The position numbers and the translations under genes are program-made. A stretch of 64,000 nucleotides of DNA from assembly GCA_938010045.1 (NCBI GenBank), contig CALLFZ010000020.1:38754-102753 (forward strand). The letters are read 5' to 3'. The stretch comes from an uncultured bacterium (GTDB lineage Bacteria > Verrucomicrobiota > Kiritimatiellia > PWTM01). Under the pieces are notes generated by a model. The model had not been told where the DNA came from and did no database searches. It saw only the letters and a program-made list of their open reading frames with translations. Shown here piece after piece: positions 3,389 through 51,954 of the stretch. Every line of letters begins with the position of its first letter. Position 1 is the stretch's first letter.

Positions 3389-3709
3389 ATGAAACCGTAC
3401 GCAGTGATTGAAACAGGCGGAAAACAGTATCTCGTTCGGCCGGACGATCGTCTGACGATCGAGCGGATCGCCGCGGAGCCCGGCCAGACCGTGGCGCTGG
3501 CTCCGGTGCTGGCAATCTCCGACGGTTCGACGTTGAAGGTGGGCACCCCCGACCTGCCCGATGCGACCGTTTCGGCGCAGGTCCTCGGGCACAGCCGGGC
3601 CCGCAAGGTGATTTCGTATCGGAAAAAGCGCCGGAAGGGGTATCACCGCAAAGTCGGCCACCGGCAATCGGTCACGTCGGTCAGGATCGTCGGCATCCCG
3701 ACCCCCTGA
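3389..3709 (+). CDS. rplU: 50S ribosomal protein L21
   Basis: MKPYAVIETGGKQYLV... is the L21 signature. The longer track ORF (3182..3709) is an upstream in-frame extension; the ATG at 3389 gives a 106-aa product. Confidence 0.9.
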   Translation: MKPYAVIETGGKQYLVRPDDRLTIERIAAEPGQTVALAPVLAISDGSTLKVGTPDLPDATVSAQVLGHSRARKVISYRKKRRKGYHRKVGHRQSVTSVRIVGIPTP

Positions 3710-16320: not shown

Positions 16321-16354
16321 GTGCCTGTCGCCGCTCTTCGGTGGGGACAGGCAC
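16321..16354. repeat. Short hairpin copy of the GGGGACAGGCAC / GTGCCTGTC repeat family (9-bp arms, 16-nt loop)
   Basis: The sequence is GTGCCTGTCgccgctcttcggtgGGGACAGGCACAAG. The same 15-mer GGGGACAGGCACAAG occurs at 51206. Confidence 0.45.
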
Positions 16355-16517: not shown

Positions 16518-16594
16518 TGGTGCGCCTGCCGCGGATCGAACGCGGAACCTTCAGCTCCGGAGGCTGACGCTCTGTCCAATTGAGCTACAGGCGC
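16518..16594 (-). tRNA. tRNA-Arg (anticodon CCG)
   Basis: The reverse complement folds as a cloverleaf: acceptor GCGCCUG/CAGGCGC, D-arm GCUC/GAGC, anticodon stem UCAGC/GCUGA with loop CUCCGGA, T-arm CCGCG-UUCGAUC-CGCGG, and an encoded CCA. Confidence 0.85.
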
Positions 16595-25431: not shown

Positions 25432-26133
25432 TCACCAGTGGATCGTGAATGCGCCGCTGCGGAGCTGCGGCTTCATCTCGGCCCACGGCACCCACCGCAC
25501 GGAGCCATCGAGCATCCCCTCGTTGGCGCCGAGCGGGTAGCGGCCGCGTAGGTGATTCACGCCGCGCCGAGTGTCTGGCCCGTACCAGCCATAGCCGCTC
25601 CATTCGCGCGTCACATCCACCCACAACACGCGCACCGAGGGCTGGTCCGTCGCCCGCGTCGGGAATATCGGCGACCGCGTGTGGGGCTGCAGCGGGCTCC
25701 AGCCGTTGAACACGTAGGGGTTGTCCTTCGCAAGGTACGTGTAGCCCCACACCGACATCTGTCCACCGTACGACCAGTTCCAGAAGTAATCAAAGTCCCA
25801 GTCGCGCCGGTTCGCGGGACAGTAACAGTGGCCGCGCGTGATGCCGTACGAGGCGACCAACACATTGCTGTGCAGGTAGGCGAAATAGTACGGAGAGGAG
25901 TTTTGCGCATGGATCACGGGATACCGGCCGCCAAAGTCCCCGACGGCGGCCTCGGTCGCCGTCAGCAACACATGGAGGTTCGAGGCGCACGACGCGCGCC
26001 GCGCCCGCTCCTGCGCCCCCGAAATCCCGGGTACCAGGATCAGAATCAGAATCCCAATGATTCCGATGACCGCTAGCAGCTCGACCAGCGTGAATCCGCC
26101 ATTCCGACGCGCCCCCGATCTCCGCCGACTCAT
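25432..26133 (-). CDS. Prepilin-type N-terminal cleavage/methylation domain protein (DUF1559, pseudopilin-like)
   Basis: GFTLVELLAVIGIIGILI is a class III signal peptide / N-methylation motif. The start is at the internal ATG 26133, which overlaps the upstream gene's stop. Confidence 0.75.
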   Translation of the reverse strand: MSRRRSGARRNGGFTLVELLAVIGIIGILILILVPGISGAQERARRASCASNLHVLLTATEAAVGDFGGRYPVIHAQNSSPYYFAYLHSNVLVASYGITRGHCYCPANRRDWDFDYFWNWSYGGQMSVWGYTYLAKDNPYVFNGWSPLQPHTRSPIFPTRATDQPSVRVLWVDVTREWSGYGWYGPDTRRGVNHLRGRYPLGANEGMLDGSVRWVPWAEMKPQLRSGAFTIHW

Positions 26134-27440
26134 ACCAGCGGATCGGCGCCGGTCGCGATCGGATGGAACAGGCCCGGCCCAGGTTTCCACGCGGACGGCT
26201 CCGGAACCAGCGCGTTCTTCGACGCGTTGAGTAGCCACTCCCATGAGAACGACTTGCCGGTGTAGGCCGCGATGCGCGCGCCGATCGCCGTCAGTGTGCT
26301 CTCCGCAATCCGGACGCCCTCGTTCAGCGGCTGGCCGGCCCGTATGCTCCGGATCAGGTCCACGTGCTCCTGCTCCTGCCCGTTCACCGACGGACCCGCG
26401 TAAGCCCAGACCGTCTTGCCGTCATGGCTCATGATCCGGCCCGCACAGTCGCTCCAGCCCTTCGCGCCGACGATCTTTTCGCCGTGCCGTTGGGTCCCCG
26501 GTCCGTGACCACAGAAGCTCAGGCACCGGGCGCCGTTCGGATACTCCAGCTCCGCCGCGATGTGGTCCCAGATGTCGCCGTTATACTTGACCCAGTCGGC
26601 CTCGTTGCCCAACGCCTTGGCGACCGCCCGGGCTTGATCCGAGTAATCGCGCCAGCCGCGCCCGCCGACCGCCGTGAACTTCTTTGGCGGTCCGTCGAAG
26701 CACCAGTTCATCACATCGATGTTGTGAATGTGCTGCTCGACGATCTGGTCGCCCGACAACCACGTAAAGTGGTACCAGTTGTGGCACTGCCACTCCATCT
26801 CGCTCATGCCGGCCTCGATGCCCCGGTACCAGATGCTGCCGCCGTACCAATAGCACTGGCCGCCGACCAACTCGCCAATCGCGCCTTCGTGGATGCGCTT
26901 CATCAGCTCGACCCGCGCCGGCTCATGCCGCCGCTGCGTACCCGCGACGATCGCGAGTTTCTTCTGCTCAGCCAGCCGCGAGGCCTCGATGAACAGCCGG
27001 CATCCCGCGACATCCGTCGCGACCGGCTTCTCGGTGAAGATGTGCTTACCCGCCTGCACCGCGGCCATCATCTGCCACGGCCGGAACGCCGGCGCGGTGG
27101 CCATGAGCAGAAGGTGTGTGTCGGTCTTCGCGAGCGCCTCGTGGCACTGGAAGCCGCCGAATATCGCATCGTCCGGCACCCGCACGCGATTTTTGAACTT
27201 CGGATCCTTCAGCAGCGAGTCCCGCAGGCGCCGCGCCTTCTCCGGAAAGAGATCCGCCAGCGCGACCACCACCACGCCGGGATCGGCCATCAGGCAGTGC
27301 TTCACCGCACCGCTGCCGCGCCCGCCACAGCCGAGCAACCCCACGCGAATCTCGTCCGACCCCGCCGCATACGCTGCACGCGCGGCCGCGAGCCCCGCCG
27401 CCACTCCGCCTGCCGTCATTCTTGACATCGTTGCACTCAT
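26130..27440 (-). CDS. Gfo/Idh/MocA family oxidoreductase with twin-arginine (Tat) signal
   Basis: The N-terminus has Tat-like features and GLLGCGGRGSGAV is a Rossmann motif. The fold is similar to GH109 and inositol dehydrogenase. Confidence 0.72.
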   Translation of the reverse strand: MSATMSRMTAGGVAAGLAAARAAYAAGSDEIRVGLLGCGGRGSGAVKHCLMADPGVVVVALADLFPEKARRLRDSLLKDPKFKNRVRVPDDAIFGGFQCHEALAKTDTHLLLMATAPAFRPWQMMAAVQAGKHIFTEKPVATDVAGCRLFIEASRLAEQKKLAIVAGTQRRHEPARVELMKRIHEGAIGELVGGQCYWYGGSIWYRGIEAGMSEMEWQCHNWYHFTWLSGDQIVEQHIHNIDVMNWCFDGPPKKFTAVGGRGWRDYSDQARAVAKALGNEADWVKYNGDIWDHIAAELEYPNGARCLSFCGHGPGTQRHGEKIVGAKGWSDCAGRIMSHDGKTVWAYAGPSVNGQEQEHVDLIRSIRAGQPLNEGVRIAESTLTAIGARIAAYTGKSFSWEWLLNASKNALVPEPSAWKPGPGLFHPIATGADPLV

Positions 27441-27484
27441 CCTCGCCTCTCCCTTCCAACCGGTCGCGTCCATCCACCCGCCGC

Positions 27485-28780
27485 TCATGTCCGTTTCCCC
27501 TTCTCCTCCACCACCAGCCCCGGCAATTGATACTTGCCCGGTACGGCCACCGGCGGCACTGGCATCGGGTCGCTCATCTTGAGGTCCGACCGCGGCCGCA
27601 GATCCAGCTCACAACGCTGCAGGAACCACTCCCGCTTCATCTGCTGACGAGTGTAGGCGGACTCGCGCGCCATGATCGCGCACATCGTGCTCTCTGTGAC
27701 CTGCCGCGCCTCGTTCAGGTACGCGCCGCCCCGGATACTCTCGATGAGATGCCGGTGCTCCTCCACGTACGGGTTCGGCGTCGGTCCCTCGTACCGCCAT
27801 TTCACCTCCCCCTCAATCACACCGGCGCAGTTGCTCCACCCCTTCGTGCCCACCACCCGCTCGCTCACGTTGCCCGCCGAACCCTCGATCTGCCGGCACA
27901 GGCTGATCGTGCGCACGTCGCCCGGATAGAAGAATTCCGTGCCGAAGTGATCGTAGATGTGGCCATACTCCGGCGCGGTCCGGAACTGCCGGCCGCCGAG
28001 CGAATGGACCTGATCCGGCAGAGCGCCCATCGCCCAGTTGATCACATCAATGTTGTGCACGTGCTGCTCGACGATATGATCGCCCGATAGCCACACGAAA
28101 TAGAGCCAGTTGCGAAGCTGCCACTCGATGTCGCTCTGGTTCGGCTCACGCTTCTTCACCCAAAGACCACCCTGATTCCAGTAGCACTGCGCCGAGACGA
28201 TTTGGCCGATCGCGCCATCGCGAATGCGCTTCATCGTCTCCATGTACTTCGGATCATGCCGCCGCTGCGTGCCGGCCGCGACGCAGAGCTTCTTCGCGAC
28301 TGACTTCTCCGCCGCCTCGAGCATCTGCCGCACGCCCGCCGCGCACACCGCGACCGGCTTCTCGGTGAAAATGTGCTTGCCCGCCTCCACCGCGGCCGAA
28401 AAATGCAGCGGCCGGAACCCCGGCGGCGTCGCAAGGATCACCAGGTCCACCTCGCTGAGCGCGAGCACTTCGCGGTAGGCCTCGAGCCCGACAAAGCAGC
28501 GGTTGTCGGGGACCTTGAACTTTGCTTTCGCGCGCTCCACGCGATCCGCGAACGCATCGGCCAGCGCCACGATCTTCACGCCCTGAGCGGCCTCTAGACA
28601 ATTGTCCGCCGCGCCCATACCGCGGCCGCCGCATCCAATCACGCCAACCCCGATGGTGTCGGTCGCCGCCGTGTAGGCGACCCTGGGAGCCGCGCCGGCC
28701 AGCGCAAATCCGCCCGCCGCCATCGCCGTCCGTCCCAGAAACCGCCGCCGATTCATCCGTGCGATGTCCGCCATAATCAT
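27485..28780 (-). CDS. Gfo/Idh/MocA family oxidoreductase with Tat signal (paralog of 26130..27440)
   Basis: NRRRFLGRTAMAAGGFALAGAA is a Tat motif and GVIGCGGRGMGAA a Rossmann motif. AAGGAG lies 3 nt upstream of the ATG at 28780. Confidence 0.75.
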   Translation of the reverse strand: MIMADIARMNRRRFLGRTAMAAGGFALAGAAPRVAYTAATDTIGVGVIGCGGRGMGAADNCLEAAQGVKIVALADAFADRVERAKAKFKVPDNRCFVGLEAYREVLALSEVDLVILATPPGFRPLHFSAAVEAGKHIFTEKPVAVCAAGVRQMLEAAEKSVAKKLCVAAGTQRRHDPKYMETMKRIRDGAIGQIVSAQCYWNQGGLWVKKREPNQSDIEWQLRNWLYFVWLSGDHIVEQHVHNIDVINWAMGALPDQVHSLGGRQFRTAPEYGHIYDHFGTEFFYPGDVRTISLCRQIEGSAGNVSERVVGTKGWSNCAGVIEGEVKWRYEGPTPNPYVEEHRHLIESIRGGAYLNEARQVTESTMCAIMARESAYTRQQMKREWFLQRCELDLRPRSDLKMSDPMPVPPVAVPGKYQLPGLVVEEKGKRT

Positions 28781-29960
28781 CTCCTTGTCGCGCGGGGCAC
28801 ACGCAGAACGCGCCGCCGTCGCATCAAATCCATACTCTATCCCCGGACAGCGCGTCCGCACAAGCCGCACCCCGCCCCTCGCGCCGTTTGCGCTGTGGGG
28901 CATCCGCTGGCTCAAGAGGCGTCGGCGAAGCGAATATCGTTCCCGCCAACACCCCGGCGCCACTCACCCGCGCTTCTCGCCCTTCCTCGAAAAACACGAA
29001 TGCTTCGACCATCCGCCCCCCTGGGGACCGGCACTTGGAACGCCCCTCGAGACCGGCACCTCGCCGGCCCTACGGCGGCGCGGGGGACAGGTACCTCTGA
29101 CGGGCACCTCTGACGGCTGAGCCCGAAACAAGCACCTCGCGGGCGGCCGCTGGGAAGAGGCACCTTGCGGGCGGATCGGGACAGACTCATGTACGGTCGG
29201 CCGGGCCGCTCGGCGTCAGTCGCCTCGCGTCAGCTACATGCAGTCGTCTTAGGGACCGTCATAGGCGCCATAGGGACAGGCACCGTTCTGGGAGCGGAAC
29301 CGGGATGGGCACTGAGAGCTCACGGGGCACAGGGTGGGGACAGGCACAGCACCGGCCGCACGAGTTCCAACGACACTTCTAACGCCGAGAGTGGGGCTGT
29401 CGTGTGCCTGTCCGCAGTCCGCTGCGGCCGTCCGCGATTGGGGACAGGCACATGCGCCGACGACGCAAAAATCTCGCTGTCCCTATGCTCTGACTTCGTA
29501 TCGGGTGCCTGTCCCCATCGGGAGTCGCGATCGATGTCGAGCGCCGCCGCGCGGAAGCCCGCGAGTGGCGAGGCCGCCGTCTGCGGCGAGCAGGGCGGGC
29601 CCGACGGTTTCCCGCCGCTGTTCGATAGAGGACCGGCAGACGAGGCATACATGCACTTCTATCCGCTTCTACCGGCATGCAGACCCCTCGTCGCATCTCT
29701 TGACACAATCCACAACGCGATCCCACCTACCCCTCCGACCCGCGAGCCCTCTGCGCAGGATCGCATCTTGGAACGGCGAAGCGGGGCGCTCCAGCACCGC
29801 GCCCGATGAGGACGCGCGGGTTTCTTCCGCGGGTCGCGGCGCGCCGCCTTCGGCGGTGCGCAAACGCGGACGGTGCCGGCTAGCCGCTTGCAGGAAGCGG
29901 CGGGGCGTCGTAGTGTCTGGCTGCCACGCCGATCAGCCACCGGCGGGCGGGAGATTCGTC
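28781..29960. repeat. Non-coding repeat island A: mosaic of GGGGACAGGCAC / GTGCCTGTCCCC modules plus degenerate GCACCTC tandem repeats
   Basis: This is 1.2 kb with no credible ORF. The core 12-mer or close variants occur at 29023, 29083, 29271, 29336, 29404 (inverted), 29440 and 29505 (inverted). Long stretches align to island B. Confidence 0.65.
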
Positions 29961-37552: not shown

Positions 37553-38818
37553 ATGAACCATCGTGAACGCGTGCTCTGCGCGCTCGACCACCGCGAACCC
37601 GACCGCGTACCGGTGGACCTCGGGGCGACCGCCGTGACCGGCATCCACGTCTCGGCACTCGGCCGTCTGCGCCGCGCCGTGCTCGGCCCCTCCGCCGCCG
37701 CCTCTCCCCTTCGCGTACACGAGCCCTACCAAATGCTCGGTCTCGTGGATCGCGAAGTGCGCGACGCGCTCGGGTTGGACGTCGTCGGGGTCACCCCCCG
37801 CCGCACGATGTTCGGCTTCGAATGCCGCGATTGGAAGCCCCTCACGCTGTTCGATGGCACCGAATGCGAAGTGCCCGGCGGCTTCGAGATCTCGATCACC
37901 GACGAAGGCGATTGGCTCATCCACCCCGAGGGCGACCGGTCCGCCCCACCGAGCGCGCGCATGCCCGCCGGGGGCTATTTCTTCGACGCGATCATTCGAC
38001 AGCCGCCGCTCGACGAATCACACCTCGATCCCGCCGAGAACACCGAAGAATTCGCGGACCTTTCCGAGGACGACTTGGCGTGGTACGAAGCCGAGGCCCG
38101 TCGCCTCGCCGCAGAGGGACGGGCCGTCGTGCTCTCCATGCCCGGCACCGCTTTCGGCGACATCGCGCTCGTGCCAGCTCCCTGGATGAAGTACCCGCGC
38201 GGCATTCGCGACGTCGAAGAGTGGTATGTCTCACTCGCGGCGCGTCCGGCCTATGTGCGCGCTGTGTTTGACCGCCAGCTCGAGGTCGCCCGTCGCAACC
38301 TCGAGCGGATGATCGCGCGACTCGGAGATCTCGTCGACGTCGTGCTGCTGACCGGCACGGACTTCGGCGAGCAACGAGGCCTCTTCATTTCGCCGCACAT
38401 GTACCGCGAGCTGTTCCGCCCGTACCACCTCGAGATCAATCGCCTCGTCCACGAGCGCAGCCGTTGGAAGACGATGATCCACTCCTGCGGCTCCGTGTTC
38501 GACCTTCTCCCCGACTTCATCGAGGCGGGGTTCGACATCCTGACGCCCGTCCAGTGCTCCGCCGCAAACATGAACCCGCGCGATCTCAAGCGCGAGTTCG
38601 GGCGCCAGCTGGTGTTCTGGGGCGGCGGTGTGAACACGCAGCACACGCTGCCCTTTGGCACGCCCGAGGAGGTGTATCGGGAAGTCCGCGAACGGATCGA
38701 GGTGTTTCGCGAGGGTGGCGGCTTCGTCTTCAACACCATCCACAACATTCAGGGCAACACGCCTACCGAGAACATGCTCGCGATGTTCCGCGCAATTCGG
38801 GACAGCGCGCGCGGCTGA
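37553..38818 (+). CDS. Uroporphyrinogen decarboxylase (URO-D) family protein
   Basis: The 421-aa product has URO-D / MtaA-like fold features. The gene is divergent from an AraC regulator and lies in a carbohydrate locus. Confidence 0.6.
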   Translation: MNHRERVLCALDHREPDRVPVDLGATAVTGIHVSALGRLRRAVLGPSAAASPLRVHEPYQMLGLVDREVRDALGLDVVGVTPRRTMFGFECRDWKPLTLFDGTECEVPGGFEISITDEGDWLIHPEGDRSAPPSARMPAGGYFFDAIIRQPPLDESHLDPAENTEEFADLSEDDLAWYEAEARRLAAEGRAVVLSMPGTAFGDIALVPAPWMKYPRGIRDVEEWYVSLAARPAYVRAVFDRQLEVARRNLERMIARLGDLVDVVLLTGTDFGEQRGLFISPHMYRELFRPYHLEINRLVHERSRWKTMIHSCGSVFDLLPDFIEAGFDILTPVQCSAANMNPRDLKREFGRQLVFWGGGVNTQHTLPFGTPEEVYREVRERIEVFREGGGFVFNTIHNIQGNTPTENMLAMFRAIRDSARG

Positions 38819-50718: not shown

Positions 50719-51077
50719 CGCAGCTCCTCCGGCAATTGCGCGCGACGCGCTGGATCCCCTGGAAGATCGTTGGCATCGAACCCCAGAAGCACAATCGCGC
50801 GCTCAAAGTTGCGTCGCGCCGCGCGCTCGCTGTTATAGGTCACCCTAACCACACGATTCGAAGGATCGGTCTCCACGCGGATCAGGATGTTCGTGTCGAA
50901 CCCGCGCAGTGCTTGCTCCACCATCTGGACTGCCTGCGGCGTCCGCATTTGAGGCACGCGGATCTCAAAGGTTCGAATCACCTCGCGGAAGCACCCGGCC
51001 GCCAAGAGCGCCGCGACCACACCACACATCCAGCGCATCAAGGTTCTCCTACCGTTCGTTCGGGCACGGACACGCAC
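50715..51077 (-). CDS. Hypothetical small lipoprotein
   Basis: The signal peptide has a lipobox (LLAAGCF). The stop overlaps the pepA start. There are no conserved cysteines for an HMA fold. Low confidence. Confidence 0.35.
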   Translation of the reverse strand: MRVRARTNGRRTLMRWMCGVVAALLAAGCFREVIRTFEIRVPQMRTPQAVQMVEQALRGFDTNILIRVETDPSNRVVRVTYNSERAARRNFERAIVLLGFDANDLPGDPARRAQLPEELR

Positions 51078-51798
51078 GATAGGGCTGCGCGGCTGCTCCT
51101 GTCAAATGATCGAATCTCGAGAGGAACACGGTCACCTCTCTGGGCGCAGGGGGCGAATCGAACCGACGGGGGTAGCCGGGACGTTGGCTCTGGCTAGGCG
51201 CCCTTGGGGACAGGCACAAGCGCAGACGACGCAACCATCTCGATCTCAATCTGCCGTGACTTTTTGTCGGGTGCCTGTCCCCATTTGAGTCCCCATTTGA
51301 ATCCTCGATCATTGTCGAGCGCCGCCGCGCCGATGCCCGCTCACAACGAGGCCGTCGATCGCGGCGGTCGTGGCACAGGGCTGGCCTGATGGTTTCCTCT
51401 CCGCTGTAGCTCCGGCGCTCCGCCGCCGGAACAAGGCTTGTGGGGGCCGGTGGTAGCAGGCACCTCGGACGGCGGCTGGGACAGGCCCCTCTGGAGCGGC
51501 TGCTGGGGAGAAACACGTACCTGCTCGGCCGAGCACTCCAGCGATCATCGCCCCGCCCTAGCCGCCAGAGATCGTCATAGGGACAGGCAGCGCTCTGGGC
51601 GCAGGCTGGTGCAGAGAACCGATCGGGTTCGCTAGGTGCCTGTCCCCAGTCCGGTCCCCAGCCCGCTGCCCCGTCCGCCATTGGGGACGCCATTGGGGAC
51701 AGGCACACGTCCCGCGGAATCCTCCTACCCGCATCCTGACCCCACGTTTTCCCCCTTCGAAACAAAATCCGCCGCGCAATCGGCTTTCCGGGGCCCTC

Positions 51799-51827
51799 TT
51801 GACGCAGAACCTTGTCGCTTGTATGTT
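51799..51827 (+). promoter_or_regulatory. Candidate sigma70-type promoter (TTGACG-17-TATGTT)
   Basis: The -35 and -10 hexamers have 17-nt spacing and lie immediately upstream of a strong hairpin and U-tract. The -35 region is conserved in island A (CTCTTGACACA at 29697). Confidence 0.3.
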
Positions 51828-51833
51828 GATCAT

Positions 51834-51897
51834 GGGCAGTGTGCGTTTTCCCTGGGTTCCCCACCCAACCTCCTTGGCGCACGCTGCCCTTTTTTTG
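51834..51897 (+). terminator. Intrinsic-terminator-like hairpin (12-bp stem with one G-U, 32-nt loop) plus a 7-T tract; with the promoter, a candidate small RNA of about 60 nt
   Basis: GGGCAGTGTGCG...CGCACGCTGCCC is followed by TTTTTTT. The U-tract exists only in the + orientation, which is antisense to cysK. Confidence 0.4.
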
Positions 51898-51954
51898 TTT
51901 GCGTAGCCACGAAACCGGCCGGATGGCCTGGACCGAAGCGGTCGTCGTGCAGCC

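Follow-up and report, generated by a model that had tools for sequence, protein, structure and literature searches.

A 64,000-nt stretch of DNA from an uncultured bacterium of the Kiritimatiellia (contig CALLFZ010000020.1 of assembly GCA_938010045.1, forward-strand positions 38,754 to 102,753; hereafter the window) carries two copies of a short inverted-repeat module, GGGGACAGGCAC-N53-GTGCCTGTCCCC, that can probably be understood as a non-autonomous, gene-less miniature of the structures known as TIRtrons: two GGGGACAGGCAC terminal inverted repeats (TIRs) of a TIRYT-type Y1/HUH transposase placed around ~53 nt. On this reading the module is the TIRYT counterpart of the REPIN, and its TIRs stand in the same mutual orientation as those around the transposase gene itself, with the GGGG ends outward. 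The names come from Di Nocera, De Gregorio and Rocco 2013 (BMC Genomics 14:522; PMC3733652), who termed the structures TIRtrons and the enzymes TIRYTs. They described genes resembling those of the REP-associated tyrosine transposases (RAYTs) but accompanied by terminal inverted repeats of consensus GGGGWSAS rather than by GTAG repetitive extragenic palindromes (REPs), and noted moderately abundant TIR families that occur, like REPs, in dimers or clusters. In the classification of Quentin 2018 (PMC6006769), the TIRYTs correspond to TnpAY1 subclass 2.1 and to RAYT Group 1 of Bertels, with the flank consensus GGGG[AT][CG]A[CG]. The head of the 12-mer, GGGGACAG (then GCAC), fits both of these consensus sequences.

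The first-pass annotation of this DNA had placed the arrangement GGGGACAGGCAC-N53-GTGCCTGTCCCC at 29440–29516 and again at 51206–51282, with perfect 12-bp arms and with the stretches GACGACGCAA, ATCTCG and TCGGG kept in both spacers. On re-reading, both occurrences and all three stretches are present as described and the arms are perfect at both sites, but their true length is 13 nt (TGGGGACAGGCAC and GTGCCTGTCCCCA). The module is indeed shared by the two islands in which it was noticed; however, the 12-mer is not limited to these two hairpins and recurs in a third island. With up to one mismatch allowed, the window holds 13 units of the 12-mer against 0.62 expected (a ~20-fold excess), a number reached in none of 100 shuffles. 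All 13 units are intergenic, occur in both orientations and fall into three islands, at 16321–16354, 29023–29516 (island A) and 51206–51706 (island B).

The inverted pairs within the window are spaced by 10, 47, 53 and 56 nt. The modules of islands A and B align without gaps at ~80–83% identity over 81–86 nt, and their homology extends ~120 nt downstream (29433–29625 against 51199–51410, of which 29517–29625 and 51283–51410 adjoin the modules). The equality of the two 53-nt spacers, taken at first as a sign of selection on length, does not bear that interpretation: the two copies are gap-free paralogues ~80% identical, and they share a spacer length because no indel separates two sequences related by common descent, while further copies are spaced 10, 47 and 56 nt apart in the window and ~22–120 nt apart elsewhere. 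When island B is rotated it aligns with island A, so that the two appear as circular permutations of one ~490-nt composite, as is also seen in the 489-nt spacing of repeat family D4. The order of the parts within this composite (29000–29640 against 51199–51707) is a TIR dimer, the downstream segment, degenerate units, a CATAGGGACAGGCA unit, a reverse unit and a TIR. Islands A and B are clusters of intact and decayed TIR units and paralogous copies of one composite, and their permutation suggests a tandem or circular intermediate, or an array resembling a bacterial interspersed mosaic element, sampled at different phases.

When folded as single-stranded DNA (ssDNA), each module forms a 13-bp stem with z-scores of −2.9 to −4.1 depending on the strand. 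The interiors are without dominant structure (minimum free energy frequency ~1–3%), and it is through the arms only that the modules fold better than shuffled sequences in this DNA of 67% GC. Neither the spacer nor the downstream part has a homologue among all the loci fetched from other genomes, which marks the interior as lineage-specific. The behaviour of the region in assembly is also informative: three short-read contigs from two other sequencing runs of the same organism (L197, L198 and L113) end inside island B, at 51233 and 51401, two of them at the identical base, and these breaks flank the right arm of the module together with its downstream part. Such breaks are expected of a repeat that has more copies than the window shows.

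The same arms recur widely beyond this organism. A scan of GTDB with one genome per species, for the same arms with a gap of 40–70 nt, returned at least 111 loci from Actinomycetota (Collinsella, Microthrix), Planctomycetota, Acidobacteriota (including Thermoanaerobaculia), Verrucomicrobiota, Nitrospiraceae, Alpha-, Beta-, Gamma- and Deltaproteobacteria, Firmicutes (including Lachnospiraceae), Bacteroidales and a Kaiserbacteria metagenome-assembled genome (MAG). Their interiors are unrelated to those of the window and, beyond close relatives, to one another; in total length they span 46–144 nt, with arms enclosing ~22–120 nt. Several genomes carry multiple loci, and up to 11 units are found in one locus of 8 kb. 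In these genomes the 12-mer usually lies within a longer lineage-specific palindrome, is often bracketed by an A-run and a T-run, and often comes right after a stop codon. All-vs-all clustering of the open reading frames (ORFs) from the 111 loci yielded no shared clusters of neighbouring proteins other than those reflecting synteny in Collinsella; the association of the repeat is with a transposase normally encoded elsewhere in the genome. The hairpin pattern had no match in 2.9 million viral contigs, from which it follows that it is not phage-borne, and searching the full text of the literature with the exact 12-mer and variants of it yielded nothing but unrelated papers on primers and miRNAs.

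In Collinsella, a dimer of 89–90 nt (AACCACCACAAA-12mer-CTTTGTGGTGGTT...) is syntenic in many species and lies right after a stop codon (L006, L010, L012, L013, L028, L031 and ~30 further loci), with conserved stems and a variable center; it looks to have been vertically retained over long periods, as has been reported for REPINs. Across the GTDB loci as a whole, 31% of 265 units have the 12-mer enclosed by local inverted sequences that match over 4 bp or more, against 5% of controls. In Massilia, for example, the bracketing sequences are GTGTCCAC/GTGGACAC, and beside the transposase gene of locus L115 they are GGTTAAGTT/AACTTAAC; the bracketed 12-mer could be presented as a hairpin loop too. 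A local hairpin with the 12-mer in its loop (X-12mer-X') was considered as the defining structure and set aside, this arrangement being absent from the window (flank stems of 0–3 bp) and from many other lineages.

Where a 12-mer is invariant while interiors and spacing vary, and where the units cluster and occur in both orientations, the pattern points to a protein recognition site on a family of repeats and not to an RNA helix. The initial suggestion that the arms are functionally conserved while the loop drifts is thereby borne out, in that the 12-mer is invariant across phyla and the interiors are unrelated. Of the two explanations then offered for it, a secondary structure or a dimeric protein binding two half-sites, what survives is that a protein probably binds, presumably as a Y1/HUH enzyme acting on ssDNA; neither an RNA helix nor the operator of a regulator is indicated.

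Evidence for the identity of this protein comes from the loci in which the 12-mer accompanies a gene. In an AT-rich locus from a Clostridia MAG (L058), an ORF of 266 aa lies between 12-mer units at 1764/1800 and 3443/3478. It carries the HUH motif LMPNHIHLE and the tyrosine motif RYIHQNPVKAG, matches the Pfam family PF01797 (Y1_Tnp) with an E-value of 3e-12, and matches the NCBIfam model NF047646 (REP-associated tyrosine transposase) with an E-value of 3e-16, under the curated cut-off of that model. Homologous ORFs adjoin the hairpin in a Bacteroidales locus (L083) and lie between two clusters of the 12-mer in a Pirellula locus (L047).

The reverse test was made on 80 metagenome loci encoding homologues of the L058 protein. 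The 12-mer with up to one mismatch is found within 200 nt of the gene in five of the 80, exact only in L115 and L151 and as a GGTAC variant in L117, L138 and L172, and in these five it is always in plus orientation upstream and reverse-complemented downstream. Most of the remaining loci have repeats that share the GGGGAC head but end in another tail; GGGGACGGTTCT is the commonest of these, followed by GGGGACGGGGTT, GGGGACAGGTAC, GGGGACGTTTCC and others. Within 300 nt upstream, on the strand of the gene, 31 of 72 loci contain GGGGAC and 5 of 72 its complement; the corresponding counts for GTCCCC downstream are 31 of 65 versus 6 of 65. At 29 loci the same 10-mer of the form GGGAC+5 is found inverted on both flanks. 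An exact-protein look-up brought in five more homologues of the L151 protein; each has repeats of GGGGACAGG plus 3 nt on its flanks, and in L208 the repeat is GGGGACAGGCAC itself. Thus, orientation-specific repeats with a GGGGAC head surround roughly half of ~90 TIRYT homologues, and the exact or one-mismatch 12-mer flanks a Y1/HUH gene in inverted arrangement in L058, L083, L047, L115, L151 and L208.

These proteins were compared by BLASTP with 13 published TIRYT and RAYT sequences rebuilt from Additional file 5 of PMC3733652. The proteins whose genes have the 12-mer or a GGGGAC-headed relative of it on their flanks find their best matches among the TIRYTs (gbm 2474, pca 3049, sml 1152 and aba 2776), with E-values of 1e-13 to 1e-39, as against 1e-9 to 1e-15 for canonical RAYTs (2e-3 in the case of L047). 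According to PMC6006769, proteins of TnpAY1 subclass 2.1 have ~240–270 aa (median 238), a C-terminal extension or helix-turn-helix (HTH), and the motifs NHVH or NH[YF]H, FQ or W[EQ], and Y[IV]HLNP or YIELNP. The L058 protein, with its 266 aa, has NHIH, FE and YIHQNP (its tyrosine motif also fits subclass 2.6), and that of L083 has NHFH, FQ and YILLNP. A Pfam search of the homologues at E-values up to 0.01 returned PF01797 only and no C-terminal HTH domain. In a quick neighbor-joining tree of the TIRYT homologues, repeat subtypes cluster locally only, and the GCAC subtype is scattered.

Set against known systems, the module shares with the TIRtrons GGGGWSAS-headed inverted repeats that flank a Y1 gene and occur between genes as singles, dimers and clusters, together with hosts among the PVC (Planctomycetes–Verrucomicrobia–Chlamydiae) bacteria, Acidobacteria and Proteobacteria (PMC3733652); it differs in its 12-mer subtype, in the identical recurrence of this subtype across phyla and in its probable Kiritimatiellota host, of which the available text of that paper makes no mention. 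With REPINs and RAYTs it shares the inverted doublet with a short spacer, the capacity to form a hairpin, the lack of autonomy, the intergenic position and the clustering (PMC3116915, PMC2817692, Ton-Hoang 2012), as well as a partner that is normally a single-copy Y1/HUH transposase flanked by the same repeats. Canonical REPs, in contrast, are each an imperfect palindrome that bears a 5' GT[AG]G head at its foot, and they go with RAYT groups 2 and 3 (TnpAY1 subclasses 2.2, 2.4 and 2.5), whereas the units of the window start with (T)GGGGAC, have no GTAG or GTGG head and, with flank stems of 0–3 bp, are not individually palindromic; the enzyme group also differs from the canonical RAYTs, being that of the TIRYTs (equated with Bertels Group 1 and subclass 2.1). 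Subclass 2.1 is matched in its inverted GGGG[AT][CG]A[CG] flanks and in its patchy distribution across phyla (PMC6006769). The TnpA enzymes of IS200/IS605 insertion sequences and their palindrome-associated transposable elements (PATEs) are alike in Y1/HUH chemistry on ssDNA and in the recognition of hairpins at the ends of the element, but have asymmetric subterminal hairpins without TIRs, are multi-copy together with their gene, and have the tyrosine motif Y---Q in place of the Y---NP seen here.

By analogy with IS200/IS605 TnpA and the TnpA(REP) of Escherichia coli, a mechanism can be proposed in which the inverted pair would fold into a hairpin in single-stranded DNA, the template of the lagging strand being one example. 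A TIRYT whose gene lies at another place in the genome would then recognize the GGGGAC(AGG) head along with a short subtype-specific tail, and by cleaving and rejoining the strand it would give rise to copies, relocations and reduplications of units or leave them to decay. Identity of the arms would be maintained because they are the recognition sequence of the enzyme, leaving the interior free to drift. Mobilization in this particular genome is likewise proposed by analogy. Secondary effects on the host, e.g., stabilization of transcript 3' ends or termination, are possible.

Several observations weigh against the interpretation as a TIRYT-served miniature. No REP-like sequences were found around subclass 2.1 genes by Quentin 2018 (PMC6006769), whereas here the flanking repeat is also dispersed as hairpin-forming dimers, and the flanking 16-mers of RAYT Group 1 were only modestly abundant in Bertels et al. 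2017; taken together, the two surveys imply that proliferation of TIRYT repeats is not general. The action of TIRYTs on TIRs figures only as future work in Di Nocera 2013 (PMC3733652) and is demonstrated in none of the papers examined here. The module with the 53-nt spacer is represented by two copies only. There is no Y1 transposase gene in the 64-kb window or in the ~2.6 kb beyond its high-coordinate end, which leaves the TIRYT of this genome unseen, and the units could be relics. Finally, the closest named relative, a Kiritimatiellae MAG (L196; GCA_026417735.1) whose M17 peptidase is 75% identical to that of the window, shares the gene order of a 107-aa gene, M17 peptidase, SAICAR synthase and integrase, with a flavin mononucleotide (FMN) reductase in place of cysK upstream and an intergenic gap of 110 nt; its syntenic stretch of 21 kb contains no 12-mer and no island by the peptidase operon. 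The island thus coincides with a break in synteny, and the absence of the 12-mer from this stretch agrees with reports that these enzymes are patchily distributed.

The same body of evidence can be held against other accounts of the modules. A structured non-coding RNA, i.e., a small RNA of ~80 nt or a cis-acting 3'-end hairpin or terminator whose arms are kept as an RNA helix, would account for the stable 13-bp helix (z −3.5 to −4.1), the intergenic site and the shape of a bidirectional terminator that A-run/T-run bracketing after a stop codon lends to the units of other lineages, and a secondary action on mRNA 3' ends is known for REPs (PMC3733652). It is nevertheless improbable. A search with Rfam 15, at gathering and permissive thresholds, of the window, both islands and 16 related loci found no family, with only chance matches to miRNA and lncRNA models (E of at least 0.24); for the window as a whole, only tRNA and tRNA-Sec stand out from chance-level matches. 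The interior is unstructured (minimum free energy frequency ~1%) and unconserved between lineages, units occur in both orientations and in arrays of degenerate half-sites, and scans show no promoter-like or terminator-like site at the modules. Moreover, selection on a helix would have produced covariation instead of 12 nt invariant across phyla, and an RNA offers no explanation for the fixed-orientation tie to a transposase gene. More improbable again is a miniature inverted-repeat transposable element of an insertion sequence with a DDE transposase and GGGG-initial TIRs. Such TIRs are familiar from Tn3-family elements, and the layout of a short interior between TIRs agrees with an origin of this kind; yet there are no direct target-site duplications, the flanks of the arms are usually inverted complements such that the palindrome extends outward, and the sole gene recurring between inverted 12-mers is the Y1/HUH transposase, with no DDE enzyme.

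That the arms form an operator for a dimeric transcription factor controlling neighboring genes has very little probability, even though the perfect inverted half-sites are promoter-proximal and lie upstream of a GFO/IDH/MocA gene and the M17 peptidase operon: the range of spacings, from 10 to 56 nt in the window and 22–120 nt elsewhere, is incompatible with one dimer geometry, an island or locus may have up to 11 units, neighbors are unrelated across more than 100 loci apart from the syntenic ones of Collinsella, and many sites are downstream of genes. The least credence can be given to a small conserved peptide read in the frame LGTGT...SGACPH. One frame is open in both copies and gives similar peptides, a pair that was reproduced here in frame +2 with six differing residues, and a 271-aa ORF is called on the other strand over island B. 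The similarity of the peptide ends arises, however, because the invariant arms are translated. The 15 differences between the copies fall 6/2/7 by codon position with no clear excess at the third, the open frames around the copies extend over 231 and 63 aa in 67% GC DNA with four of its six frames open, no Pfam family matches the called ORF, and the interiors in other genomes are unrelated. The view in the first-pass annotation that coding is not favored over structure therefore stands, coding being unsupported. Readings of the 12-mer by eye as a sigma-54 site, as a ribosome-binding site with start codon or as a terminator were dropped, since only copy A has an ATG after the arm and no promoter-like or terminator-like site came out of the scans at the modules.

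Beyond the module as a TIRYT-served miniature, a broader and decidedly tentative proposal may be made, namely that the GGGGACAGGCAC dimers belong, as a single lineage, to a REPIN-like population that spans phyla and is served by the TIRYTs (RAYT Group 1, TnpAY1 2.1), the largest RAYT-like group, with a modular code made up of an invariant GGGGAC(AGG) head and a subtype tail of 3–6 nt (GCAC, GTAC, GTCT, GGTTCT, GGGGTT and others). If so, the presence of the same 12-mer in at least nine phyla would mean either a very strong enzyme–DNA constraint or frequent joint horizontal transfer, and the reduplications of the GTCCCC tail seen in the window and in the Clostridia MAG would be footprints of cleavage and rejoining.

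These reduplications, and the remaining features of the islands, are best viewed alongside the coordinates given in Table 1. In the window at 51271–51300 the tail of an arm and its adjoining flank are partly reduplicated in tandem, as GTGCCTGTCCCCATTTGA GTCCCCATTTGA, and TTGGGGACGCCATTGGGGACAGGCAC at 51681–51706 is a further partial reduplication; a like arrangement, GTGCCTGTCCCCACTTTGA TCCCCACTTTGA CATCCCCACTTTGA, is found in the Clostridia locus L058 (~519–560 and 3478–3530). Such reduplications of the tail may be footprints of cleavage and rejoining at GTCCCC. Like the assembly breaks in island B, they would suit a repeat that has many copies and is actively processed. The third island lies ~165 nt from a tRNA-Arg(CCG) gene (16518–16594, minus strand), the only tRNA gene noted in the window.

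Table 1. Units of the 12-mer and associated features in the three islands of the window.
Feature	Position	Strand	Support
TIR dimer A, probable gene-less miniature TIRtron, GGGGACAGGCAC-N53-GTGCCTGTCCCC	29440..29516		ssDNA fold, 13-bp stem, dG −21.7, z −4.1
TIR dimer B, paralogue of A	51206..51282		alignment, blastn; ssDNA fold dG −19.9, z −3.5
Downstream part of module A, same repeated unit as 51283–51410	29517..29625	+	alignment; repeat families D5 and D7; blastn
Downstream part of module B, opening with the 12-nt tandem reduplication GTCCCCATTTGA x2 (51277–51300)	51283..51410	+	alignment
Second dimer of island A, GGGGACAGGCAC-N56-GTGCCTGTCCGC (one mismatch)	29336..29415		pair search, fold
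Degenerate same-orientation array of island A: GGGGACCGGCAC 29023, GAGACCGGCAC 29049, GGGGACAGGTAC 29083, GGGACAGACTC 29178, AGGGACAGGCAC 29272, GGGATGGGCAC 29302	29023..29312	+	
Degenerate units of island B: GGGACAGGCCC 51478, AGGGACAGGCAG 51579 (homologue of the 29272 unit)	51477..51590	+	
Dimer in opposite arrangement, GTGCCTGTCCCC-N47-GGGGACAGGCAC, with inner partial GTCCCC/GGGGAC reduplications	51636..51706		fold z −3.2
Third island, GTGCCTGTCGCC-N10-GGGGACAGGCAC, head-to-head	16321..16354		fold z −4.9

The islands are set among housekeeping genes, which code for two GFO/IDH/MocA oxidoreductases, an M17 leucyl aminopeptidase, a cysteine synthase and a pyridoxal phosphate (PLP)-dependent enzyme of Cys/Met metabolism (PF01053). 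The two GFO/IDH/MocA genes are adjacent paralogues of 452 and 492 aa (26130–28963, minus strand) directly upstream of island A, and a 147-nt segment with 72% identity between them makes up repeat family D1. The public gene call of a 271-aa protein at 51049–51882 on the minus strand (equivalent to 11048–11863 of L112) spans all of island B without a Pfam match; this ORF, in repeat DNA rich in GC, is almost certainly spurious. Beyond this island, in the region 51799–51900, a sigma-70-like promoter (TTGACG-17-TATGTT, 51799–51827, plus strand) is followed by a very stable hairpin at 51834–51889 with a 14-bp stem (RNA dG −32.3, z −6.1) and a U7 tract. The loop of this hairpin holds CCUCCUU, which resembles an anti-Shine-Dalgarno sequence, and an Rfam search of the region gave no match; it is a candidate small RNA (51834–51895, ~60 nt) or else an orphan terminator, and it runs convergently towards the 3' end of cysK.

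The module thus probably represents a new case within a familiar class of selfish DNA rather than a novel RNA or regulatory site, and a false lead is removed in that there is no new riboswitch-like RNA, operator or micro-protein at the modules. The repeat nature of the islands explains both the spurious ORF calls made on them and the breaks that short-read assemblies suffer there. What is new in this is modest and would hold nothing surprising for a specialist in REPs and RAYTs: one 12-mer subtype recurs with identical sequence in many phyla, and dimers of the REPIN type seem to be common for a group of enzymes said to lack REP-like partners. To the little-studied TIRYT/TIRtron repeats are added a probable Kiritimatiellota host and one very widely shared 12-mer subtype. 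These patterns suggest that REPIN-like proliferation is commoner for the TIRYT group than the surveys of 2017–2018 concluded and, if that is so, the TIRYTs would offer a tractable system for understanding how HUH enzymes read single-stranded DNA.

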